Positions 2,610 through 42,836 of a stretch of 43,476 bases of DNA are shown piece by piece; positions within the stretch are counted from its first letter, which is position 1; the number at the start of each line of letters is the position of its first letter. Location of the stretch: NCBI GenBank assembly GCA_000708835.1, contig DF237657.1:1-43476 (forward strand). Reading direction: 5' to 3'. The translations under genes and the position numbers were made by a program. This DNA comes from Klebsormidium nitens. Taxonomy: Eukaryota > Plantae > Klebsormidiophyceae. Under the pieces are notes generated by a model, which saw nothing but the letters and a program-made list of their open reading frames with translations, made no database searches and was not told where the DNA came from.

Positions 2610-2936
2610 CTACCCAAAGGTGCTTTCTTCGCAGAGAGTTACGTTGAGCACACTCCTGTCCTCTTCTTCAAAGAGCTCCCCGAACGTCTTGGAATTCTTG
2701 GGTAACAGATCACCAATCAGTACAAAACAACCATTCTTTCTGCTGGAGGTGCTGAGGAAGCCTTTCTTGCCTAGGAGGGCCATGAAGCATGCGACTGTGG
2801 TACGCTTTGGAATCATGAGCTTCTTTCCATCTTCTTTCAGGCACTTTCCATGCACGATAGCTGGAACATGATCTGGGTACAAGACCAGCAGCTGGCCAAG
2901 ACCTTGTTTGTGACAGTCCTTGGAAGGTTGCATCAT
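2610..2936 (-). CDS. ATG8: ATG8-like ubiquitin-fold autophagy protein ending in an exposed Gly
   Basis: YPDHVPAIV ... KKLMIPKRTTV ... LNVTLCEESTFG* aligns with ATG8 YPDRIPVIV ... KKYLVPSDLTV ... LYITYSGENTFG. Confidence 0.85.
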   Translation of the reverse strand: MMQPSKDCHKQGLGQLLVLYPDHVPAIVHGKCLKEDGKKLMIPKRTTVACFMALLGKKGFLSTSSRKNGCFVLIGDLLPKNSKTFGELFEEEDRSVLNVTLCEESTFG

Positions 2937-3001
2937 GGTGTGTTTGTGTTTGTTTACCCAGATAATATGACTCTCAAGTAGGTGTCTTCTGAACCATAGT
3001 G

Positions 3002-3549
3002 CTGGGTATGGCCTTACATACATACATATCGCCAATTGGAAACCAAAGGGAAAAGTCTGTACTANNNNNNNNNNNNNNNNNNNNNNNNNNNNNNNNNNNN
3101 NNNNNNNNNNNNNNNNNNNNNNNNNNNNNNNNNNNNNNNNNNNNNNNNNNNNNNNNNNNNNNNNNNNNNNNNNNNNNNNNNNNNNNNNNNNNNNNNNNNN
3201 NNNNNNNNNNNNNNNNNNNNNNNNNNNNNNNNNNNNNNNNNNNNNNNNNNNNNNNNNNNNNNNNNNNNNNNNNNNNNNNNNNNNNNNNNNNNNNNNNNNN
3301 NNNNNNNNNNNNNNNNNNNNNNNNNNNNNNNNNNNNNNNNNNNNNNNNNNNNNNNNNNNNNNNNNNNNNNNNNNNNNNNNNNNNNNNNNNNNNNNAATTG
3401 GAAACCAAAGGGAAAACTCTGTACTCCTAATCTGTTATAATTCCTTCCCTGGAGAAGAAAAAAAATATAACAGATTCTAGTATGAGAGTCTTGGTTCCCC
3501 CGGACCTTTGGCGATATGTATGTATGCAAGACCCTGGTGGAAAATGAAA
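3002..3549 (+). repeat. Repeat element copy 1: 117-bp tandem-unit family with inward-facing CATACATACATATC terminal motifs; contains an assembly gap
   Basis: Homologous, in inverted orientation, to 39260-39682; GGCCTTACATACATACATATCGCC near the left end mirrors GGCGATATGTATGTATGCAAGACC near the right end. Confidence 0.85.
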
Positions 3550-5510: not shown

Positions 5511-6392
5511 ATGGAGGAAACCAAGGATGTATCTGGCAAGTGCGCGATTGCAAATGTGGCGCCTCCCCTCTTGGTGGAGCTGTTGCTCAATCACTCGGAC
5601 ATTGGAGTGCCTGCTGTGACCGCGCTTGCTTGCACGTCAACTGGATTCAGCAAAGCATTGGATGAGCTGTGGCCGTCTTTGATGACAGAGTATGCCAAGA
5701 AGTGTCGAGTACCTCTGATAACTAGGCCGCAAACTCATGAGATCCCGGCCGAGCACCTCCAGCGCAAATTCCCCCCGTTAAATCAAATTTGCATCGTGCG
5801 TGCCTCGCATAGGCTCAAAGGCGATGGATACGATCTGAGCTTTGCCTTCCAAGAGGACGTGTCCGAGTGGACGCGCCAGGAAGCATTAATGACCAGGCAC
5901 ATTGCCCGCTACATGTACTGCTTGACCACCCCAGACCTCGAACGCCTCGAAGTATACAACAGAATATTTGGTGAGAGGTGCTACCGCTTCGAAGACGTCC
6001 TAGCGGCAGGCATGCTCCGTTATGGCCGACGCCCTTATGTTGAGCGCCTCCTTCGGAGGCCGGCCCGTTTGCTTATGAAGGACGAGAAGTTTGCAATTCG
6101 CTGGGCCAAGGCTCGGCACTTGCGCCAGCAATTGGCCGTGCCGGGCATCGCTCTGGATGATGGTTCGCTCTGGGAGTACGCAAAAGAGTACACTCGAACG
6201 GATGCTGGGATGAACGAACTCAAGAGGCGCATCCACTTGCACCACTGGTTTGCAGGAGTAGTGGAGCCAGTGGGCGAGCAAGAAGAGTTACGAGTGAAGC
6301 ATCTTCAAAAGGCATACGCTTTCACGGGTGACAAAAAGCTGATCCAAGAAGCCAACAGGATCTTTGCTGATGAATTTTTGCTGGACTACTAG
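5511..6392 (+). CDS. Hypothetical protein, possible F-box-like N-terminus plus XPA-C-like motif
   Basis: PPLLVELLLNH...ALACTS at the N-terminus; IARYMYCLTTPDLERL...YRFEDVLAAGMLRYG resembles the XPA C-terminal pattern. Confidence 0.5.
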   Translation: MEETKDVSGKCAIANVAPPLLVELLLNHSDIGVPAVTALACTSTGFSKALDELWPSLMTEYAKKCRVPLITRPQTHEIPAEHLQRKFPPLNQICIVRASHRLKGDGYDLSFAFQEDVSEWTRQEALMTRHIARYMYCLTTPDLERLEVYNRIFGERCYRFEDVLAAGMLRYGRRPYVERLLRRPARLLMKDEKFAIRWAKARHLRQQLAVPGIALDDGSLWEYAKEYTRTDAGMNELKRRIHLHHWFAGVVEPVGEQEELRVKHLQKAYAFTGDKKLIQEANRIFADEFLLDY

Positions 6393-7226
6393 GGCACGTC
6401 GATCCTTGGGATCTTGAAGGGTGCCGGAGATATTGCGAGAGGGGCAGGAACGTCCGTGTCTTCGGCAGGTGGATAGGTTCTCGGGACGATGTATGTTTTG
6501 ACAAGGGCCGGAAGCGCCCCGCCTATTACTGGCCCAACAATATAGATCCAGATCTCACTCCACGCTTTGCTGTGGGCTTTTCCCGAAGCAGCAATCAAGG
6601 CACCCAAACTGCGAGCAGGATTCACGCTCGTTCCGTCGATAGGAATCAGAGCAAGATGCGCGACTGTGATGGCAGCGGCTATAGCGACAGGCACCATGAG
6701 ACCTAAAACGTGCCGCCCAACATCGTTCACGGGCAGAAGGCCCGTGACTTGGAGGACAGTGGTGACAAGAAGGGCCGTCGCAATGATCTCTGCGAGGAAT
6801 GCCTGCCACAGATGAAACCCCGGCTGCACAATGTTGACCGCCTGATTCGCTGCATACAAGTCATGGTTTGAAACTGCTCGTGCGAGTAGAGCGCCGCATG
6901 TGCAACCTACGATCTGAGCTACAATGTATACCAAACCCGTTAGTACACTGACAGACCGTTGAATGACAAAGGCAATTGTCACGCAAGGATTCAGATGCGC
7001 GCCCGATGCATTCCCGTAGGCAAAGATCAATGCGCCTATGGTCGTGCCAAACACGGTGGCTATACCAAGGGGTGCAAGTGCTGTCCCGTCAGTCGGGCTT
7101 GGCTCATAGTTCAGTGACCACACTGGTCACAATGATGAATAAGAAGAATGTCGATCCCAAGAACTCTGCACCAGCAGCATTGCACAGACGGAGCATCTTG
7201 TTCTTGTGAGCAGTCGTTGAATCCAT
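6389..7226 (-). pseudogene. PIP-like aquaporin (MIP family) with a frameshift near 7111-7116
   Basis: SGAHLNPCVT and HLALIPIDGTSVNPARSLG motifs; TM1 (AGAEFLGSTFFLFII) is encoded from the ATG at 7226 in a different frame. Confidence 0.85.
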
Positions 7227-13181: not shown

Positions 13182-14190
13182 ATGATGATCAATGTGGAAG
13201 AGGTGAGAGTTACTCGCATCCCCACTGGAAGCGACGGGTTAAGAAAACGACCGTTAGCACTAGACTTGTTTTGCGGAGGTGGTGGAGCGGCCATGGGACT
13301 CTTTACAGCTGGATTTGATGTCCTGGGCTATGATACCAAAGAATAGTGTATATCCGTTTGACTCTGTCAACGAGTGCGCAATGACGGCAGACGTCTCCAA
13401 GGCGGACTTCATCTGGGCATCTCCACCATGCCAACAATTTAGTAGTATCATTCCCACAGCGTACCGTGAAAAATATGGCCACATGTGGCATCATCAGAAC
13501 CTCATAACCCCAATTCGAGAAAAATTGGCACTCAGTGGGAAACTCTACGTGATAGAGAACGTGCAAAACGAGCTGCGAGAACCTGCGATGCTCTGTGGGA
13601 CCATGTTTCAGAACATGAAGGTGTTCAGACAAGTTTGGTCTACACGTAGACCGGAAGTGCAACCACACAGGTAAGAGTCTCGGAAGTCGTTCTCCAATAT
13701 CCCAATCGGTCACAAAGCAGCCCATGGATATCGTCGAAACCGATTCCGGATCGATGGAAGTCCATATAAACCCCGGAGAGTGGAGATGCGAGTACACTAC
13801 CAGGAAAAGTGGAGAATCATCTGGGACAACGGATGCATATTACTTTTCAGCAAGTGGTGTGAGATTCCGATCCATCCGTGAAATCGAGAGATCTGTCAAG
13901 TGCAAGGTGACAGTCTTTGAAGCAGGCCGGTCTCCTCGAACATCTCAAATGTACAAGAGACGCCCTCAAATCGAACAGCAAAATAAAGCTACTGAAATGT
14001 TTCCTATGTACGGGACACCGGGACGAGTACGGGGGACCGTGCAGGAGTGGTCTGATGCAATGCAAATAGATTGGACACAGTCCGGTAAGACGTTCGCTCA
14101 AGCAATACCACCAGCCTATTCTGAATACATAGGACGACAAGCTCTGGAGCAACTAGGCTACGTACTAGATTACACCCCCCCCCCCCTAAT
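13182..14190 (+). pseudogene. C5-cytosine DNA methyltransferase with an inserted MBD domain (about 13769-13897); two frameshifts (about 13340 and 13630)
   Basis: Motif I LDLFCGGGG, motif IV ASPPCQ, motif VI YVIENV, then MBD PGEWRCEYTTRKSGESSGTTDAYYFSASGVRFRSIREI, then AMQIDW...AQAIPPAYSEYIGRQ (motifs IX-X of the short phage-type family). The 3' end is uncertain because of a C12 run. Confidence 0.85.
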
Positions 14191-14949
14191 TCTATTGAAG
14201 TATCTACACTACTTCACTCAACATCTCCACTTCAATGTCAAGCTCCCCTTTCCCCGGCTTCTCAACAGTCCTCCTTTGCCACTCCCGGGCCACCTTTTCG
14301 ACTTCGACGATCTCGACGGTTTCTGCAAAGGTTACAACCACTGCAAGGACACACCAATGTCAGCACGGTACAATTGGGAAAAACGAGGAATAGCACAGGC
14401 GAAGAATAGTGCGTGCTCATCATTCGTTCAAAGGAAGTATCTGAAGGCTCCCTTACCTCGGCAGAAACCTGCTTGCGCACCAATATTCTGCCTCAGCTTT
14501 TTCCAACTGTTCACAGTCGTGAATCTCGGTCGCGGCTCTACCCCGGACCAGCACTCTGGGTCGATGTCAATCCTCAAGTCCTTCCCTACTTGTCTGGCTC
14601 GCGGTACTCGATACAATTGTGTGACATGGACGGAGACCGCCCCTGCAAGATGTAAATATAAGCTTGAAAAAGGTCGATACATAAGATTGCGCATGCAACT
14701 GGAGACAATGCTCATGCCAGGTCATTTCGAGCATGTCCGCAGAACGGGCAGAGAGCTCACCTGCATCTCCAGGAGCCTCTGGCGTCTCACCCTCTGCCGG
14801 CTCACCCCCTTCTCCCGTTCTGCAAGGGTTCCTACCTGAAAAAAAATGGAACGGTGTGAATGCGAGACCATCGATCAGTCAAAACCGGACGTTATGAAGC
14901 TCACAGAACAACCACTTTCGACCAACCAACCAATAACGGAACCGTTTAC

Positions 14950-23760: not shown

Positions 23761-23969
23761 GGTTTCTGAGGGTTTTTGAGAGTCGAGGCCGCGCGCCGGC
23801 GGCGAGGAATTTGGCCACGGGTATTGAAAAATTGTGCGCCAAAACGGCACCAAGAGTCCCAATGTCGTGAGGGACACTATCGTGCCAGCCTCTCGAAGCA
23901 TGGGAACGGATGGCATAGTCTCTTTATATGCGGCCTATGCGCCCATAGTATCTTTGAGAGCATCCGATG

Positions 23970-24247
23970 TCATTCAGAGCTTCCATTGAAGCAGTAACGC
24001 TCAATCGCATTCTTGAAGAGCCCAAAGTTTGGAGGCAATCTGATAACGTCCTCTACGACTGCAAAATCATCCTTGTCCTCCGTAAAAAAGGGGTAACCAA
24101 CCACAGCAGCCGGGACTCTACACCAAGCTACTTCACACCCTCTTGCCGGCCAAAGCCTTTGTAGACTGTCTTTGATGCACCACAACCTATAATCTCGCTG
24201 CTGCAAACGAAACGCCCTGATGGATCCTTCCACACAGCATGCTGCAT
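23970..24247 (-). pseudogene. Truncated WNK-kinase N-lobe fragment with a frameshift
   Basis: KDPSGRF...EIIGCGASKTVYKGF...EGV/EVAWCRV (1-nt shift near 24133) matches the WNK GxGxxK...EVAW pattern, then homology is lost. Confidence 0.75.
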
Positions 24248-24311
24248 GTGAGCTCGTACTTGTGCGTCAGAAATTCCAAAAAATACGCGCATCCCTAAAG
24301 CAGGGGCAACA

Positions 24312-25436
24312 ATGCTGCCGGCTTTAGATGTGTTTTCCGGGATTGGTGGATTTGCAAGGGCACTCCAAGGGATTGCAACGGTCAAGAAATTCTGTGACAT
24401 TGATCCGTCCGCTCGGGCATGTATACGGCGAAACATGGATAGGGGGCTGCTCGAGGAGGCAGAGATTGAGACAGACATCAGGAACCTCGAGGGGTCAAAA
24501 GACGTTGAAGTGATCGCTGCAGGGATCCCGTGCCTCGGTTTCTCGCCGCTAGGGCTAAAGGCAGGTTTTGAGCATATCCAAACGAAGCTATTCTACGAGC
24601 TTCTCAGGGTCATTGACGAGTGTGATCCCCAGCTCATATTTCTCGAGAACGTGCCAAACATTGTCCTCCACGGCATGCACACGGTGGTCGATGAATTGCA
24701 CGAGAGGAGGGGGTATGATCTGTCCTGGGTCCTTCTGCCCGCTTATGCAGTTGGGGCATACCACACCCGGCTCCGGTGGTTCTGCCTGGCCAAAAAACCG
24801 AATCTCAAGCTGACTTGGGACAATCTGTCCTTCGTACCACACTGCTTTGACACCAAGGACCCGCCGCCCAGGATGATTGGGAGAGACGATCCGGGGTGGC
24901 TTGAGAGGGCAAAGAGATGCTTTCTTTTGGGGAACAGCATCGTGCCTTGCGCAGCCCGTCTCGCCTTCTTTCTGCTGGCAAGTGGTTTCAAGCAGGGAGA
25001 TATTGCTGCACCGACCCTGGTCATGGGGGAACCAGGCCCGGCCCTACGCACGGTGGTGGATGAGACAGCCCCTGGCTTTGTCTTTCCCCGGTGGGGAGGA
25101 GTCGACTCGAAAAGTGTCTACAGCATCCCGGTGATGCACTTTAGGAGGCCCGAGCTGCAGTTGCAACTGTTCCAAAGGCCGCAGCTCGAGGTGCTTCTTA
25201 CAGAAAAGGTCACGTCTCCCGTCATTTATTCGCAATTGCTGCGATTGTGGAGCACCCCTCGTGCCGGTTGCACTGGAAGCAGTCGCATCCTTACTGAGAG
25301 GAGCAGCCGAGATCTCCCGACGCAGGTCAAGTTTGAGGTGGGAACTCCGGAACATGAGAGAAAGGGCCAGCTGAATCCAGATTGGGTTGAAGAGGTTCTG
25401 ATGGGTTATCCAAGAGGTTGGACTTGCTATAAATGA
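24312..25436 (+). CDS. C5-cytosine DNA methyltransferase, intact, with apparently permuted motif order
   Basis: DVFSGIGG (I), GIPC (IV), FLENV (VI), HTRLRWF (VIII), LLGNSIVP (X), then WSTP...LNPDWVEEVLMGYPRGWT (IX-like) at the C-terminus. Confidence 0.92.
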   Translation: MLPALDVFSGIGGFARALQGIATVKKFCDIDPSARACIRRNMDRGLLEEAEIETDIRNLEGSKDVEVIAAGIPCLGFSPLGLKAGFEHIQTKLFYELLRVIDECDPQLIFLENVPNIVLHGMHTVVDELHERRGYDLSWVLLPAYAVGAYHTRLRWFCLAKKPNLKLTWDNLSFVPHCFDTKDPPPRMIGRDDPGWLERAKRCFLLGNSIVPCAARLAFFLLASGFKQGDIAAPTLVMGEPGPALRTVVDETAPGFVFPRWGGVDSKSVYSIPVMHFRRPELQLQLFQRPQLEVLLTEKVTSPVIYSQLLRLWSTPRAGCTGSSRILTERSSRDLPTQVKFEVGTPEHERKGQLNPDWVEEVLMGYPRGWTCYK

Positions 25437-27656: not shown

Positions 27657-27704
27657 CAAGGCCATCCAAAAATAATATGCACATGTTACATTACCATTCA
27701 ACGC

Positions 27705-31046: not shown

Positions 31047-31984
31047 ATGTCCGCAAGCTGCCGAATAACAGATACAAGCCCGAGTGGCAAGTATGTCAGG
31101 TACGCAGAGGTGATTGGTAGAGGTTCGTACAAGATTGTGCACAGAGGCTTTGACAGAGAGCTGGGGATTGAGGTTGCATGGAGTAAGATTGTACTCAGCA
31201 AGTTGGAAGTGAACGAGGAATTCCACGAGCAGATCCAACGGGAGGTTGACCTCCTCAAGATCATAAGATGCAGTAATGTCGTCGAGCTCCTTGATGCATG
31301 GTTTGATCCGGAGCGCAATGAGTTCCACATTGTGACAGAGCTCTTTCCCAGCGGAAGTCTGAAGGACTATCTAAAGCGCCATGGCCATATAGCTCTACCT
31401 GTTGTGAAAAGGTGGACACGGACCCTGCTGGAGGGTCTTGCGTATCTGCATGCGCAGAACCCGCCAATCGTTCACAGAGATGTCAAGTGCGACAACATCT
31501 TCATCAGAGGAGATGTGGGACAAGTCAAACTAGGCCCGGTGACCTTGGCCTGTCGACCCTCAAAAGCAGGTCCTCCATGTCTAGCGTTGTTGGGACACCA
31601 GAATTCATGGCCGTGGAGATGTTCAACTCTGACTATGACGAGAGGGTTGATGTCTACTCCCTTGGAACGTGTGTCCTGGAGATGACAACACTGGAATACC
31701 CCTTTGCAGAGTGCAAAAACATTGCACAGGTCTACCGCAAAGTGATGGAAAGAAAACCGCCAGACTCTCTCAAGCAGGTTCAAGCCCCCGAGCTGAAGGC
31801 CTTTATCACAAGGTGCCTTGCTGGCCGTTCCAGCAGGCCCACAGCCCAGGAGCTCCTGGACGACCCTCTGCTAAGGGATCTGGGGGAACCGCGGCCATCT
31901 TGGTCAGAGCATGAGGCAATTCTTGTCAAGCTCGAACCCATGAGAAAGGAATCAAAACCACTGAGACTCTCCTGCTGTTTCTGA
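31047..31984 (+). pseudogene. WNK: WNK (with-no-lysine) Ser/Thr kinase with an apparent 5-nt insertion at 31533-31537
   Basis: GRGSYKIV (Lys in subdomain I), EVAW, HRDVKCDNIFI; removing GGCCC restores VKLGDLGLST...GTPEFMA. Confidence 0.88.
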
Positions 31985-32489: not shown

Positions 32490-32506
32490 TCTTGTGTATT
32501 ATTTTT

Positions 32507-33424
32507 TCAACGGTCAACCACCTGAAAGGTGGGGATTTCGGTCGCTCTCTCGTCCACCTTGTCATCTAGCAGCTCCAAAAACGAGCGCTTCCCCGCGCTT
32601 GTCCTCTCCTTCTTGGCATTCTCTTGCTCCCACAATGGCGTACGTCCTTGATTGCTCAAGACAGCGGGGCTCTCTGTGACGGCCCCGATGACAAAAGCAA
32701 ACGCCTGTGCAATCTCCTCCAGCCTTTTCGCACCCGTTATTATGATGCTCCCACTCTTGAACGCCAGAATGGTCGCGCCCGCAAACTTGATGTTGCAGCC
32801 GGCAAAATGATCCGGCTCGTAAAGGCCAAAGACGCCGTACCTCTCCATGACAACATCCCTCAGCGCCTCCAAGTTGATGGGTGCGTTGAGACGGAAATCC
32901 GTGTTCAGCATCTGGACTTTGGCTGACTGGATCTTGACTAGCTTGTCCACCTGTGTGCAATCAGGACGGAGGGCCCTGATTGTGCGCAGGACAACCTTGA
33001 GTGTACAAACGGCCTCCCAGGCACTCCTTGCGCCAGTCAGGTGGAACTTTCCGTTGGCAAACACCTTGCAATTCTTCCGGGTGGTGCCGACCTTCCCAGG
33101 GGTGTAGCGGAAAGACACCTGATTGGTAAACTTTGCCTGCTTCGAGGCCGTTGCGATCATCGAGATTGACCCTAAAGCCGGCTCCGCAGCAACTCTGTCC
33201 GTGATGGCGGACGCCTGCTGAAGCTTCTTGATGTCGATCCCGGAGTCCGTCTGGAAGATGACTGTCATGGTGGACAGGTCTGGCAGGGTGGCAGGCGGCC
33301 CTTCAAGGCCTTTGCGCTGGAGCGTTGCGGCCATTGAGGCCGATGCTGCCCTCACTTCTGCCTTCCACGAATCCACAAAGCTTCTGACAGCCGCTGACCG
33401 AGTGTCCAACACGGGCCCATCCAT
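32507..33424 (-). CDS. TBP: TATA-binding-protein homolog
   Basis: Two TBP repeats: KVFANGKFHLTGA and YEPDHFAGC...ILAFKSGSIIITGAK. Confidence 0.92.
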   Translation of the reverse strand: MDGPVLDTRSAAVRSFVDSWKAEVRAASASMAATLQRKGLEGPPATLPDLSTMTVIFQTDSGIDIKKLQQASAITDRVAAEPALGSISMIATASKQAKFTNQVSFRYTPGKVGTTRKNCKVFANGKFHLTGARSAWEAVCTLKVVLRTIRALRPDCTQVDKLVKIQSAKVQMLNTDFRLNAPINLEALRDVVMERYGVFGLYEPDHFAGCNIKFAGATILAFKSGSIIITGAKRLEEIAQAFAFVIGAVTESPAVLSNQGRTPLWEQENAKKERTSAGKRSFLELLDDKVDERATEIPTFQVVDR

Positions 33425-33845: not shown

Positions 33846-34394
33846 ATGACTATCCTGCTTGAAGGGGCTGCATGGGCTGGGTCAGCCATCCTCCTGTACC
33901 TCGCTCTCAAGCCTGAGGTGGCCAAGAGCAGGTCAGGGATGTCCTACATCAAGGGGCCCCACGCCCAGGAGTTTATGCTGCTTGTGAATACAGACATAGA
34001 TCGCCTCCTGGAATGGCTCAGAAGCCACCCTGAGCTGCTAGCTGACCGACGGTGGCAAAGGCTCGTCAAACGCTACAAGACAAAGATGCGCCCAATTGCA
34101 GAGGGGGAGGGCGGGGCAGCTTACACTCGAAACAAGTCGGACGTGAGGCTGTGCGTCCCAGAGTCGCTCGAGGAGCGAGACGTCCAGACCGCGTTGTTTG
34201 TCGCCCTCCACGAGCTGGCTCACATCGCCAACGTGAGTTGGGGTCACGACCAGAGCTTCTGGGACACCTTCAGGGACCTGCTCCGGCTTGCCGTGCGAGC
34301 AAAGATTTACAAGAGACGCAACTACAGGAATGACCCAGCTCGGTATTGTGGCCAAGATATTATGAGCCAACCCCTCGATTGGAAGGTCTCTTAA
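33846..34394 (+). CDS. WLM-like zinc metallopeptidase
   Basis: FVALHELAH...GHDQSFW (HExxH...H). Confidence 0.85.
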   Translation: MTILLEGAAWAGSAILLYLALKPEVAKSRSGMSYIKGPHAQEFMLLVNTDIDRLLEWLRSHPELLADRRWQRLVKRYKTKMRPIAEGEGGAAYTRNKSDVRLCVPESLEERDVQTALFVALHELAHIANVSWGHDQSFWDTFRDLLRLAVRAKIYKRRNYRNDPARYCGQDIMSQPLDWKVS

Positions 34395-34571
34395 GCCCCT
34401 TGTAGCAGCCAGCGGGTGCCATCAATGCGCTACAGGTGCCATGTGAGCCCGCTCAACGCCACTCTGAGGGCTCACGCCTTGACCAGAGCAACGTAGTACT
34501 TCTCCACCTCGAGGAGCGCTGGCTCCGACTTCGACCTTCCGGATGCTGGAGGGCTCTGGAACGCCCTCGTG

Positions 34572-35181
34572 TTATCCCCGTCTTTCACCACTAAAGTCCG
34601 CTTCGTTATGTGTGCAAGGACAAAGAGGAATCCTCTGGTGTCCACTCATGTCCACGAGTTCACTCATCCGTGAGCGACGTCTGCGTCTCCTGCTTCGGTT
34701 GTCTCTGGTGCCTTGACTCACATGTTGGTCGTTGGCAGTCCCTCCATCTCCGAAATCTATGGGCTGGTTGTCCGAGTGATTGTGCGTGCCTGGCAATCGA
34801 CTTGGACCAGCTCCAGAACTTAACCCTGTGACGTGAGGCCCACTGTCTGCGGCTTTCTGCTTTCCTTTCTGAGCACGGGTGCTTCGAGTGGCACCGATGA
34901 TAAAATTCCGGTAGCCCCTTTTCTCAAGCTGGCGTGCAAGGCCTGCATCATCATACAAGTCCCGAATGTAGTTCACCATGCTTACGTCTGGGTGTAAAGT
35001 TGCTCTTCCTTACGTACTTGGCAAGCATCCGGCTCTTTGCAAGCGTTTTTCGCAGGAAAGGTTGAAGCAGAGGTCTTATAACTCCGTACACCCCTCGTTG
35101 CAGGCTGGTGTTTGGGTAGCCGGCGTCCACAAAAGACTGCCTGGTATACTTGTTCAGAGTTGCATCAGTGACTGCTGCCAT
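34572..35181 (-). pseudogene. Diverged histone H3-like fold with a long basic C-terminal extension; frameshift at about 34989
   Basis: TLNKYTRQSF...SLQRGVYGVIR...FL...RKSNFTPxDVSMVNYIR aligns with H3 PFQRLVREIA...RFQSSAVMALQ...YL...KRVTIMPKDIQLARRIR if 2 nt are restored. Confidence 0.6.
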
Positions 35182-35204
35182 TCTTTATCTGTTTTATATT
35201 CAAG

Positions 35205-35438
35205 ATGGATGAAATAAATCCGAGGAAGGGTCCCTCCAAAAGGTGCATTCAGGCCTTGCTTGGGACCAGATTGAAACCGTCACAGTTCCAGGCAATGCGA
35301 GAAACCTTCAACTTGATCCTCGAGAAGACCTTTGAGGTTGCACAGGCAGAGGCTCGCCACAGGCATCAGGTAGGAGCCATAAAGATCTTCCCTCAAGACG
35401 TCCGAGGGGCGCTCAGAGACCTTGCAATCGGAAGGTGA
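35205..35438 (+). CDS. Diverged, tailless histone H4-like protein
   Basis: GPSKRCIQAL...FQAMRETFNLILEKTFEVA...IFPQDVRGALR versus H4 GITKPAIRRL...YEETRGVLKVFLENVIRDA...VTAMDVVYALK. Confidence 0.6.
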   Translation: MDEINPRKGPSKRCIQALLGTRLKPSQFQAMRETFNLILEKTFEVAQAEARHRHQVGAIKIFPQDVRGALRDLAIGR

Positions 35439-35478: not shown

Positions 35479-36147
35479 ATGGCCAGCGCAATCTCCCCAC
35501 GGGTTGTCCGGCTTCTCGAGAGACAGAGGCACAAGACCCCGTACCAGCAGCACCTCGCGAAGCTGGCACCTGGAGGGCGGGGCCTCACGCCCAGCCCGAT
35601 GCCAAACATTGAAGCAGCCCGGCACGGCCTGCGCTATGAACGAGAGGCTATAGAGAGATTCCAACAGATAACGGGCATTAGGGTCCTTGATGTCGGCCAT
35701 GTGGTTCACGAGCGCTTCGATTGGCTCTCTTGTGTTCCCGACGGAATCACCGTTGATGGCAGGGTGGCCGAGATAAAGTGCCCATACTACCGCCGGATCG
35801 TACCAGGGATCCCCAGCCACTGTGTGAAGCAGCTTCAGATTGCAATGGAGGTCACGGACCTCGACGAGGCTATCCTCGTGCAGTACAAACCAGCCAGTGT
35901 CTTTGGAGCCGAGGAGATTATGATTTCGACCCTGGCTCGGGACAGGACTTGGATCCACAGGAACTGGGACAGCCTGCACAAGAAGGTTGGCCGCCGTCGT
36001 TTCCGGCCGCGGCCTGATATGGATGACATTTTCGTACCTGTGACCAAAGCACCATGGCATCCAACACATCCTCAAGTAAACCAAAGTCCACACGATGGAG
36101 CGATATGGTTGACTCCCCCCCAGGACCCATCGACCCGAAGATCCTAA
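35479..36147 (+). CDS. YqaJ-like (lambda exonuclease family) viral recombinase/nuclease, apparently lacking motif I
   Basis: HGLRYEREA, SCVPDGIT..G...EIKCP, QLQIAMEV. Confidence 0.85.
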   Translation: MASAISPRVVRLLERQRHKTPYQQHLAKLAPGGRGLTPSPMPNIEAARHGLRYEREAIERFQQITGIRVLDVGHVVHERFDWLSCVPDGITVDGRVAEIKCPYYRRIVPGIPSHCVKQLQIAMEVTDLDEAILVQYKPASVFGAEEIMISTLARDRTWIHRNWDSLHKKVGRRRFRPRPDMDDIFVPVTKAPWHPTHPQVNQSPHDGAIWLTPPQDPSTRRS

Positions 36148-36327: not shown

Positions 36328-36858
36328 ATGGCAGGGGAACCGCCACTCCGTCTCTTTGCAAGGCAGCAGTTTTCGAAGCTCTTTGATCAACCTCCAGAGT
36401 CCGGCATGGTCATCAACGCCGAGGTAGGGGTGTACAACGCTGCGGTCAAGGGCTGCAGCAGCCAGTTTGGGGCGAGGGCATGCACTTGGGCCGATCCCCG
36501 CTTCAAGAGCAAGTACAAAGAGAAGCTCCGGTCTCTCCTCTTCAACCTCAGAAACCCAAAGAACCCAGCTTTCCTCGATAGAGTGAGATCAAAGGAGATA
36601 GGGTGTAGGCACCTCGCTTCCTTGACCCCAGAGGATATGTTCCCGGAAAATTGGGCCAGTCTCAAGGCGAAACTTGCGAAGAAGCACGTCTTTTCTGCCG
36701 ACCTTCTGGATGACGTCCCCGACAACCCGTTGCACGCTTGCAGCCACTGCAAGTCCAGGAAGATTACTACGTACGAACTCCAGACTCTAGCAGCAGACCA
36801 GTCTACCACGACGTACCTGCTCTGTCAATCCTGTTCCCATTGTTGGAAGATTGTCTAA
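36328..36858 (+). CDS. TFIIS: Transcription elongation factor TFIIS homolog with an altered acidic hairpin (QTLAADQS)
   Basis: Central domain KYKEKLRSLLFNL..PKNP.F and C-terminal CxxC...QT..AD..TT...CxxC..W ribbon. Confidence 0.9.
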   Translation: MAGEPPLRLFARQQFSKLFDQPPESGMVINAEVGVYNAAVKGCSSQFGARACTWADPRFKSKYKEKLRSLLFNLRNPKNPAFLDRVRSKEIGCRHLASLTPEDMFPENWASLKAKLAKKHVFSADLLDDVPDNPLHACSHCKSRKITTYELQTLAADQSTTTYLLCQSCSHCWKIV

Positions 36859-40745: not shown

Positions 40746-42836
40746 TCACCCGGAGATCATGTGCTCGAGAAGAGTCTCGCGCAACGAATCCAGGTTTGCA
40801 GGCTTTACCAAGACGCCAGCCATTCCAACTTCCAAGCACCGGTCAAACGTTGCAGATCTCTGGTCAGCGGTCAGGGCAACAACGGTCCGTGGCCTCTTCG
40901 ATTCTGGCAAGGCTGCAATCCTCCTCATAGTCTCAAAGCCGTCCCAGCCAGGCATGGTGAGATCCAAGAAGCAAAAAACGAATCTTGTCAACTCCATTTC
41001 CAGCAGCCGCAAGCAGGCCTCCCCGGATTCTACTGTCTTTGGAGAGCACCCCAGCTTGCGGAGCATCTTGGCAGTTACAAGACGGTTCACACTGTTGTCG
41101 TCCACAACAAGCACACGCATGCCTTTGAGGCTGCCTACAGACTCACTCCGCTTGATGATGGTCCGTTCCACGTCATGACTTACCCGCCCAAGGTGGATAT
41201 AGAACGATGCAGTTGTTCCTAGCCCAATACCCGGGCTTTGGAGCCACACGGCTCCTCCCATGAGGCGTGCCAGGTGTCTGCAGATCGAGAGACCCAGTCC
41301 CATCCCTCCAGCTTTGCGCCCAGAATCCAGCTGTCGGAATCGCTCACAGAGGCTGCCTATTGCTGAAGCTTCGACCCCAATGCCATCATCAACCACGTCC
41401 ACTCGAATCCGGTGTGTCGTACTGGTGGGTGGAGCCTCCTCCTCCCAGACTCGAAATGTTATCGTCGACTTTGTAAACTTGAGTGCATTGTTCAGGAGAT
41501 TCAAACACATCTGCATCGTCCGCTTTGCATCTCCGTCCACATATTGAGGCAAGTTATTGGCTTCTACAGTGAATCTGTATCCAGCCTCCCTTGCCATGGG
41601 CTCTACCATGCGAGATGCCTCACGAACCAGGTTCGTCAGATCAAACGGTGCCGTTCGAAGCTGAAAGTCCCCTCGATTGATCCGTGAAACATCCAGAACG
41701 TCGTCGATAAGAACGGAAAGGAGTCCTGCACTCGTGGAGATGGTATTGACCATCTCCTGGTCCCCTCTCGAAAGCGAGTTGCTGTGCTGCAGCACCGATG
41801 CTATGGCCAAGACGGCATGGAGAGGGGTCCGCATCTCGTGGCTCACCACCGCAAAAAACTCTTCGCGTGCTTTGATCCCCGTCTCAGCTGCCAAGCGCGC
41901 CTCCTTGAGCTCACGGTTCTGGGCCAGCAGATCGCGCAGGATGTGAGCGTGAGAGATTGCAACGCTGATCTGACTGGTTGCAATCTCCAAGACCTCCCAA
42001 TCGTAATCGGTCCAGTTGGAGTCCTTGGCGAGTGCAAGGATGTACTTCTGTGGTAATTGCTGCATTTCGCCCTGGAATGTAAGCTGAGGCAACACCAGAG
42101 ATACCGCATAAGCTCCATGGCGGTGGCCAGATCCAAGCAGGCACGTCCTCGGATCCAGGGGAACTGGTCCCTGAGATGAGATGGTTGTTTGCACCTCGTC
42201 CAAGCCGATCGGAATGACAGTACGGCTCCCCTTCAGTGAACCAACGGCACTCACCACATGCATAGCGTCGGGATGTGGACCAGTCGACCAGACAGCACAA
42301 TCAGTCAGGTTCAAGACCTTGGAAAGCTCCACAATTGTAGTCTCCAAGATGGTCATGGTGTCCAGAGACGAGTAGATGCCCACTGAGAGCATGCGCACAC
42401 TGTGTGTAGCAGCATATTTGCGCCTTAGCAATCCGACCTCTTGATCCAACTCATCTGCTTTCAACTTCAAGTAATGCTCTCGTTCTCGCAATCGCAAGAA
42501 GCGAGGAATCTCCCAGAACAGGAATACTGTCGTAACACCAGAAACCAGTGCCGTGAGACATTTGGCTAGGGTACTACGTGCCACAGACGAATAAGTATCC
42601 ATGAGGATCAACTGGCGGGCTGATAGCAGGTGTGTGCAGCCACAGAACAGAATAAAGAGCACGAATTGCACGAGTGTCCCTTTCTGAGGAAGCTCCTTGA
42701 ACTTGAGGCCAAAGTATATGAGCTCGATAGGGATGGAAAAGTAGGCCACCGAAATGATGGTGTCTGCCCACGCTTGGAGTTGCCCAAGGCTGTGGGAATA
42801 CGTCCACATTCTACCGAGGCACGCACATTGAACCAT
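40746..42836 (-). CDS. ETR1: Ethylene receptor, ETR1-type hybrid histidine kinase (ethylene-binding TM domain, GAF, HisKA, HATPase, receiver), intronless, 696 aa
   Basis: MVQCACL (Cys4/Cys6), ADTIISVAYFSIPIELIYF, FILFCGCTHL (Cu-binding Cys/His), SHEMRTPLH, NLLNNALKFT, DDGIG, GLGLSIC, VLVVDDN...FLDLTMP...LVKP. Confidence 0.95.
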   Translation of the reverse strand: MVQCACLGRMWTYSHSLGQLQAWADTIISVAYFSIPIELIYFGLKFKELPQKGTLVQFVLFILFCGCTHLLSARQLILMDTYSSVARSTLAKCLTALVSGVTTVFLFWEIPRFLRLREREHYLKLKADELDQEVGLLRRKYAATHSVRMLSVGIYSSLDTMTILETTIVELSKVLNLTDCAVWSTGPHPDAMHVVSAVGSLKGSRTVIPIGLDEVQTTISSQGPVPLDPRTCLLGSGHRHGAYAVSLVLPQLTFQGEMQQLPQKYILALAKDSNWTDYDWEVLEIATSQISVAISHAHILRDLLAQNRELKEARLAAETGIKAREEFFAVVSHEMRTPLHAVLAIASVLQHSNSLSRGDQEMVNTISTSAGLLSVLIDDVLDVSRINRGDFQLRTAPFDLTNLVREASRMVEPMAREAGYRFTVEANNLPQYVDGDAKRTMQMCLNLLNNALKFTKSTITFRVWEEEAPPTSTTHRIRVDVVDDGIGVEASAIGSLCERFRQLDSGRKAGGMGLGLSICRHLARLMGGAVWLQSPGIGLGTTASFYIHLGRVSHDVERTIIKRSESVGSLKGMRVLVVDDNSVNRLVTAKMLRKLGCSPKTVESGEACLRLLEMELTRFVFCFLDLTMPGWDGFETMRRIAALPESKRPRTVVALTADQRSATFDRCLEVGMAGVLVKPANLDSLRETLLEHMISG

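Follow-up and report, generated by a model that had tools for sequence, protein, structure and literature searches.

A head-to-head pair of small genes with predicted H3-like and H4-like histone folds in a likely giant-virus element of Klebsormidium nitens

Do two small genes that lie head to head in the genome assembly of the alga Klebsormidium nitens (Eukaryota; Plantae; Klebsormidiophyceae) encode a pair of histones, and if so, which ones and for what use? The DNA analysed, referred to here as the window, comprises positions 1 to 43,476 of contig DF237657.1 (GenBank assembly GCA_000708835.1), 43,476 nucleotides in length. A preliminary description of the window, made from the sequence alone, had presented the pair as tailless histone-fold genes, H3-like on the minus strand and H4-like on the plus strand, and had proposed a viral packaging or decoy module built of H3 and H4 only. 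The divergent arrangement was borne out in the DNA, with start codons at 35181 (minus strand) and 35205 (plus strand) and 23 nt between them. The features of the locus and its flanks are as follows.

32507..33424, minus strand: TBP-like neighbour (Pfam TBP, E 8e-13)
33846..34394, plus strand: WLM/YgjP-like metallopeptidase neighbour, under the Pfam cut-off
34472..34627, minus strand: remnant frame of 51 codons without a start, also present in relatives X5 and X6
34572..34628, minus strand: last 19 or so codons of the minus-gene tail, past the likely deletion junction
34629..34988, minus strand: remainder of the minus gene, with alpha3, a possible further helix and a Gly/Ser/Pro-rich tail
34988..34990, minus strand: frameshift of the window copy, at the L2/alpha3 junction
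34990..35181, minus strand: codons 1-64 of the minus gene, covering alpha1, L1, alpha2 and L2 of the predicted fold; likely H4-like here, 'H3-like' in the preliminary description
35182..35204, no strand: spacer of 23 nt, A/T in 18 of 23 positions
35192..35198, minus strand: TATAAAA box inside the spacer, candidate shared late promoter or initiator
35205..35438, plus strand: plus gene, an intact ORF of 77 aa with a predicted histone fold; likely H3-like here, 'H4-like' in the preliminary description
35479..36147, plus strand: YqaJ-like recombinase neighbour (Pfam, E 4e-10)
36328..36858, plus strand: TFIIS-like neighbour (Pfam, E 1e-15)

The neighbourhood of the pair is viral. Pfam searches with 30 ORFs of the window, which is gene-dense and contains four N gaps, revealed giant-virus genes for TFIIB, a stand-alone mRNA triphosphatase, TBP, thioredoxin, a WLM-like peptidase, YqaJ, TFIIS, SNase and KilA-N, alongside plant-like genes coding for an ETR1-type receptor, ATG8 and a kinase. 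From viral genes standing beside plant-like ones, a depletion of CpG to about 0.7, the splitting of the kinase and a second, about 81% alike copy of the YqaJ gene in run X1, we infer that the element is a decayed endogenous giant virus. Viral inserts of Klebsormidium are classed as Phycodnaviridae-like in the available text of PMC5294986, and the host element is likely of phycodnavirus type. Scans of viral contigs with the plus protein, its relative P0001, YqaJ, WLM, TFIIS and TBP as queries found no locus, and a metagenome scan gave a single YqaJ locus (31%), which was not used. In run X6 the start of a 94%-alike YqaJ gene lies on a contig that continues upstream in unlike sequence, with no cover over the histone pair; this is a hint that presence of the pair varies among relatives and is not counted as evidence. 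The zinc ribbon of the TFIIS-like protein (36328-36858, plus strand) reads QTLAADQ, and this gene is possibly decayed; the usual motif of the TFIIS zinc ribbon contains an acidic DE pair.

Other genes of the window merit a brief record. At 40746-42836 (minus strand), an intact, intron-free gene encodes a 696-aa ethylene-receptor-like kinase (ETR1_N, GAF, HisKA, HATPase and receiver domains); it lies 32 nt from its neighbour inside the viral block and is likely a virus-carried plant hormone receptor, and a literature search found no paper combining 'giant virus' and 'ethylene receptor'. The ATG8-like ubiquitin-fold ORF (2610-3023, minus strand; Pfam E 7e-7) has no introns. The protein kinase split across two frames (31047-31984, plus strand) is WNK-like by eye, and a second fragment resembling it occurs at 23967-24478, near 24128. 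A C5 cytosine methyltransferase is encoded at 24312-25436 (plus strand; Pfam E 6e-28), and inspection by eye added a second, broken methyltransferase-like region (13318-14839, plus strand) and an aquaporin-like fragment with an NPARS motif (6389-6697, minus strand).

The frameshift that had been noted in the minus gene is real in the window copy. The minus ORF meets a stop after 76 codons, and a second frame carries on to 34572; the X1 contig shows no difference from the window at the break, and it may be the source of the window rather than an independent copy. One contig of run X5 covers both genes with 52 differences in 566 nt (about 90% identity), and small indels leave its minus frame open at the break site; the same open frame was found at a loose end of run X9. 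An assembly error is an unlikely cause of the break. An intron in place of the frameshift, considered because of a GTAAG near the break, was rejected, as the X5 sequence stays in frame across the site and carries synonymous changes to either side of it.

Comparison with X5 also shows how the genes have evolved. By codon position, counted from 40 of the 44 listable differences, third-position changes make up 7 of the 8 differences upstream of the break in the minus gene, 7 of the 10 downstream of it and 10 of the 21 in the plus gene. Classed by hand, changes in the minus gene are 13 synonymous to 5 non-synonymous (pN/pS 0.12, p 2e-5), with ratios of 7:1 upstream and 6:4 downstream of the break, both significant, and those in the plus gene 10 to 11 (pN/pS 0.31, p 0.008). 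Both are thus real genes under purifying selection, and the genuine reading frame of the minus gene runs across the break. A stronger constraint on the minus gene than on the plus gene is not claimed: p was 0.011 when the count ended 16 codons past the break, a limit set post hoc, and 0.19 with all listed rows.

The 3' end of the minus gene is affected as well. Alignment to the window ends at 34627 and 34629 for X5 contigs and at 34626 for an X6 contig, each of which continues in unlike sequence, so the window copy likely also carries a deletion near 34628, and the last 19 or so tail residues are likely an artefact of this deletion and not the true end of the gene. The remnant frame at 34472-34627 could represent either the 3' part of a gene since lost or the true C-terminal end of the H4-like protein. 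A long basic C-terminal extension had been attributed to an H3-like protein; it is indeed long and does belong to the minus gene, but its charge (18 K/R versus 11 D/E over 106 aa) is concentrated in two basic patches within 34629..34988, one with an Arg run, and its carrier is likely H4-like. The tail in X5 has an in-frame gap of 12 nt. As the H4-like gene is frameshifted, it is likely dead in the window copy, and the module here would be a fossil.

Whether the products are histones was approached through predicted structure, embedding searches and whole-fold alignment, and both are very probably histone folds. AF2 models the plus protein (pLDDT 68) with helices at 12-20, 25-52 and 63-75, a short-long-short order with an alpha2 of 28 residues, and residues 1-64 of the minus protein with helices at 6-19 and 26-60, the modelled part stopping before alpha3; these helix lengths resemble those of a histone fold. 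In the ESM Atlas, the ten matches listed for the plus protein (top 0.91, recognition 2917) are all either clusters of histone folds or clusters without a name; they include clusters of NF-Y/archaeal type and, at 0.88, a viral 'TAF domain' cluster. The truncated minus ORF matches an unnamed bacterial cluster best (0.89), with CENP-W and HMf-type clusters behind it at 0.83-0.86. The sole protein relative of the plus protein among 1.84 billion representatives, P0001, is 55% identical to it. A PDB sequence search with P0001 gave 73 matches, and the 60 listed are all H2B chains or fusions, with E mostly 0.4-1.2. The same search with the minus ORF gave a weak H2B match over a gap-free stretch (E 0.18). 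Both folds are basic (pI 10.5 and 10.8).

For whole-fold alignment, natural H3, H4, H2A, H2B and archaeal histones served as references, at most 12 to a family, and scores were compared with those of shuffles and of overlapping six-frame decoys of the window at two gap settings; the minus query was the read-through with X at the break. At neither gap setting did any of 992 decoys or of 200 shuffles reach the score of the plus protein as H3; 7 decoys reached its score for archaeal histones, 14 for H4, 136 for H2B and 147 for H2A. For the minus protein, 0 of 703 decoys reached the score for H4, 4 for H2B (9 with alphaC included), 19 for H3, 118 for archaeal histones and 228 for H2A; at softer gaps H4 stayed at 0 and H3 rose to 93. 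The order of the families was unchanged from an earlier run in which the read-through lacked one residue. With P0001, of 1158 decoys, 0 matched the scores for H2B, archaeal histones and H4, 12 that for H2A and 47 that for H3. Two adjacent genes each score highest in the window for complementary histones, which speaks against a chance likeness.

Standard detection was otherwise blank or faint. Pfam gave no match for plus, minus or the minus read-through, and word-index homologue searches with plus, the longer minus ORF and the minus read-through gave none. PDB sequence searches returned no histone for plus or for the minus read-through, whose top match is a synthetic PPR repeat summed from three weak stretches. 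With the low-confidence monomer models, Foldseek, VIA-align and BFVD put no histone in a prominent place, and neither Foldseek, a check that had been proposed earlier, nor BFVD had a histone among the matches listed for the plus model; structural superposition of these models gave best Z values of 5.1 and 4.8 to unrelated helical chains, and a TAF5-TAF6-TAF9 chain at Z 4.2 was level with unrelated entries. Profile-profile comparison (hhalign) with histones reached a probability of at most 4.5%, local HMM scores were weak (10 of 500 shuffles for plus as H3, 9 of 500 for minus as H4) and a first scan with an H4 pattern found no match. A three-chain complex prediction, with minus as two natural pieces plus the plus protein and the alignment unused, scored 0.02 with a mark of 0.34 and gave no answer on an interface. 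The claim of histone folds thus finds moderate support in the whole-fold alignment, ESM matches, helices and homologue, and none in Pfam or Foldseek.

If the folds are histones, the names given earlier are probably swapped: plus fits best as H3 and minus as H4, and H3/H4 is the best-fitting canonical pair by sequence. A maximum-likelihood tree over 70 columns, with 31 sequences (five for every type of core histone, eight from archaea and the three queries), has, in its best form, plus and P0001 joining H3 (78/89) and minus joining H4 (92/84), on long branches and with neither starred. This phylogeny places the pair with H3 and H4 as had been expected, with the labels reversed, but AU tests rejected none of five alternatives, including the earlier labels (p 0.19-0.49; for minus, p 0.49 with H3 and p 0.19 with H2B). 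The homologue P0001 fits best as H2B or archaeal histone and poorly as H3.

Residue maps, numbered from the reference histones, agree in part with this assignment. The minus protein aligns without gaps to H4 51-86 and keeps Y51, R55, L58, F61, L62, T82, D85 and V86; the H4 R78-D85 clamp appears as K59-D66, with K for R78. The plus protein keeps H3 E59, R63, K64, P66, R69, R83, E94, F104, E105, I119, P121 and D123, has a three-residue insertion in L2 relative to H3 and has lost the L2 arginine R116. Neither protein has an N-terminal tail, as had been claimed: plus starts two residues ahead of the E59 equivalent, without an alphaN helix, and the GRGKGG tail of H4 is absent from minus. We take C110, H113, L126 and I130 to be the four-helix-bundle residues at which H3 meets H3'. 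In an alignment that depends on the register chosen, plus and P0001 have E for C110, H or K for H113, G or T for L126 and D for I130, so that the tetramer residues appear not to be kept. H4 R45 corresponds to Ser26 of minus and H3 T118 to Lys60 of plus, with no difference listed in X5 for either codon; P0001 keeps Thr at the T118 position. The available text of PMC9145170 describes the same H4 R45/H3 T118 swap in the Marseillevirus nucleosome, as S43/R199. The Ser/Lys swap would fit both pairing of the two proteins and the reversed labels, being a matter of two residues noticed post hoc.

The spacer may explain how the genes are expressed together. Green algae generally keep H3/H4 genes as divergent pairs, and the cellular divergent pairs compared are 302 and 529 nt apart. 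Neither of two putative RNA runs aligned to the pair. In the window, the 23 nt of the pair (22 nt in X5) is the shortest divergent gap measured, the other neighbouring pairs being 43 and 83 nt apart. The TATAAAA box is separated by 10 nt from the start codon of the minus gene and by 6 nt from that of the plus gene, too near for a standard Pol II TATA box, the usual spacing of which is 25-30 nt. It has no difference listed in X5, and it is one of three TATAAAW matches in the window, where 2.3 are expected by chance. In chloroviruses, late elements are found 6-31 nt away from the start codon, and in poxviruses and ASFV they overlap the start, according to the text available of PMC5294985. The earlier statement that 23 bp is too short for promoters consequently holds against cellular pairs and fails against giant viruses, given the gaps of 43 and 83 nt and the chlorovirus distances. 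A shared late element in the spacer is the simplest candidate reading; transcription starts that overlap across the spacer are possible and not required. The chlorovirus motifs AAAAATANTT and ARNTTAANA are at chance level in the window and absent from the spacer. Elsewhere, the same 10-mer, AAAAATAATA, one mismatch from the chlorovirus late motif, stands at 27668-27677 (plus strand) and 32497-32506 (minus strand), directly upstream of two small genes, and A-tracts precede six genes of the window at about -25 to -40.

The interpretation we prefer, held at a little short of an even chance, is that a tailless H3/H4-like heterodimer with a basic tail packed viral DNA late in infection without forming a standard tetramer, and that it is dead in the window copy. 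The plus H3-like and minus H4-like proteins would form a handshake heterodimer, and the short, A/T-rich shared spacer would give matched late expression of both genes. The dimer would bind viral DNA and compact it late in infection. For its grip on DNA it might use a patch of basic residues in alpha1 and an L1-L2 site where Ser/Lys stand in place of R45/T118, and the H4-like subunit, through its Arg-rich tail, would add charge neutralisation. Because residues of the H3-H3' bundle appear to be lost, such a particle would differ from a standard tetrasome. Of the viral H3-H4 packaging module proposed at the outset, a divergent viral histone-fold pair is still the best reading, while its labels are likely reversed and its (H3-H4)2 tetramer contacts appear not to be kept. 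One point speaks against a packaging role: a single protein relative among so many representatives is odd for an essential packaging protein. A fuller form of the packaging reading, rather unlikely with all its parts taken together, is that the pair is an ancient, unfused H3/H4-like heterodimer of a phycodnavirus-type lineage of streptophyte algae, with dimers and a protamine-like tail giving non-nucleosomal packaging, the Marseillevirus-type swapped minor-groove pair present, the H3-H3' tetramer face discarded and HMM surveys blind to it. If true, deep-branching viral histones would not be confined to fused repeats.

Several other explanations compete with packaging. The pair could be a TAF6/TAF9-, TAF11/13- or NC2-like cofactor that, with the viral TBP and TFIIB, steers host RNA polymerase II. 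The distance to the pair is 1.15 kb for TBP, 0.9 kb for TFIIS and about 7 kb for TFIIB, the proteins lack tails and an alphaN helix and have a degenerate tetramer face, and the NF-Y/archaeal-type and viral 'TAF domain' clusters and the tied TAF5-TAF6-TAF9 chain lean the same way. The neighbourhood is weak evidence, however, since TBP, TFIIB and WLM are common across giant viruses in the available part of PMC8575486; no TAF, NC2 or NF-Y chain is among the PDB sequence matches listed for plus, minus or P0001, and the Arg-rich tail and R45/T118-type swap suit bulk DNA binding, which leaves the cofactor a minority possibility. An improbable alternative is that the genes are half of a full viral nucleosome kit, with cryptic H2A/H2B elsewhere in the element, or are themselves H2A/H2B-like. 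Many histone-bearing giant viruses have the complete set (PMC11222145, available text), the minus protein has its H2B-like stretch, a possible alphaC-like helix and low H2B decoy counts, and 43 kb with four gaps is a view of part of an element. Plus, however, is poor as H2A and has no docking domain, the H3-H3' face that an octamer requires appears to be lost, nowhere else in the window does a segment score above the pair for H3 or H4, and the best decoys for H2A/H2B sit in other genes, for example TFIIB.

An accessory decoy, which would soak up host histone chaperones or poison host nucleosomes, would suit a rare, fast-changing family; phycodnaviruses use the host RNA polymerase and have none of their own, as far as the text available of PMC5294985 goes, and the Arg run could act as a nuclear signal. 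Such a role is distinctly improbable: the proteins are tailless and show about 20 identities across the fold, whereas the single viral histones known to act on the host are 64-75% identical to their cellular counterparts (PMC9145170, available text). It is very unlikely, finally, that one or both proteins are real without being histone folds, the likeness being a chance one among short basic helical proteins. All standard detectors are blank, the Atlas puts an unnamed bacterial cluster first for the truncated minus ORF, and the comparisons were many (six reference sets, three queries, two gap settings); against this stand the complementary top scores of the two neighbours, the independent match of P0001 to H2B and archaeal histones with none of its decoys as good, and fitting AF2 helix lengths.

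Several parts of this picture are already known (PMC9145170): histones encoded by viruses, divergently transcribed histone genes in Marseilleviridae, H3/H4 in insect iridoviruses that lack H2A/H2B, and H3 and H4 as separate genes in medusavirus. In the available text of PMC11222145, a survey by HMM searches finds that many singlets are recent transfers from hosts and that, among viral histones, those of deep divergence are for the most part fused repeats; likewise in part, PMC13681535 describes classes of phage histone folds and PMC8575486 finds histones commonest in Pimascovirales. The open-access main texts searched held no report of a histone pair in such an element. A complete virus record of 182 kb (G001) carries a near-canonical H3 and, 42 kb off, an H4 behind a long KAAAD-repeat arm (L008, L014); 67 canonical eukaryotic H4 loci (L015-L081), many in full histone clusters, occur in records labelled bacterial or archaeal and represent contamination. 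HMM surveys would likely miss a pair as diverged as the present one. With the copy here broken and its function predicted, significance is limited; an H3/H4-like pair that is under selection, separately encoded and highly diverged, and that resides in what is likely an algal element of phycodnavirus type, would nevertheless widen the range and forms of viral histones, and the Ser/Lys swap offers a sharp test of pairing.

Among cellular proteins, TAF6/TAF9, NC2 and NF-YB/C are tailless histone-fold heterodimers with extensions that act near TBP; no sequence match to them was seen for the pair here, their extra domains are absent, and the link is one of neighbourhood only. Among viruses, as described in the available text of PMC9145170, medusavirus and clandestinovirus likewise have separate H3 and H4 genes with a very divergent H4, but their H3 is tailed and 43-44% identical to cellular H3, and H2A/H2B are present. 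The H4-H3-like doublets of insect iridoviruses (IIV9, IIV22, IIV25, IIV30 and AMIV) likewise have no modified tails and no H2A/H2B reported there; their folds are about 23% identical to cellular histones, a packaging role has been proposed, and they provide a precedent for H3/H4 without H2A/H2B in virions. They are, however, single fused proteins of Pimascovirales that keep the minor-groove H4 Arg, whereas the pair here consists of two head-to-head genes with this Arg swapped, a long C-terminal tail on the H4-like protein and a likely phycodnavirus-type element as host. The H-delta/H-gamma (H4-H3) doublet of Marseilleviridae shares the divergent genes, the Ser/basic R45/T118 swap and a short or missing alphaN; Marseilleviridae have doublets with a partner H2B-H2A doublet, keep both R-D clamps and form four-helix bundles, whereas the genes described here are singlets in which the H3-side clamp and the H3-H3' residues appear not to be kept and for which no partner was found in the window.
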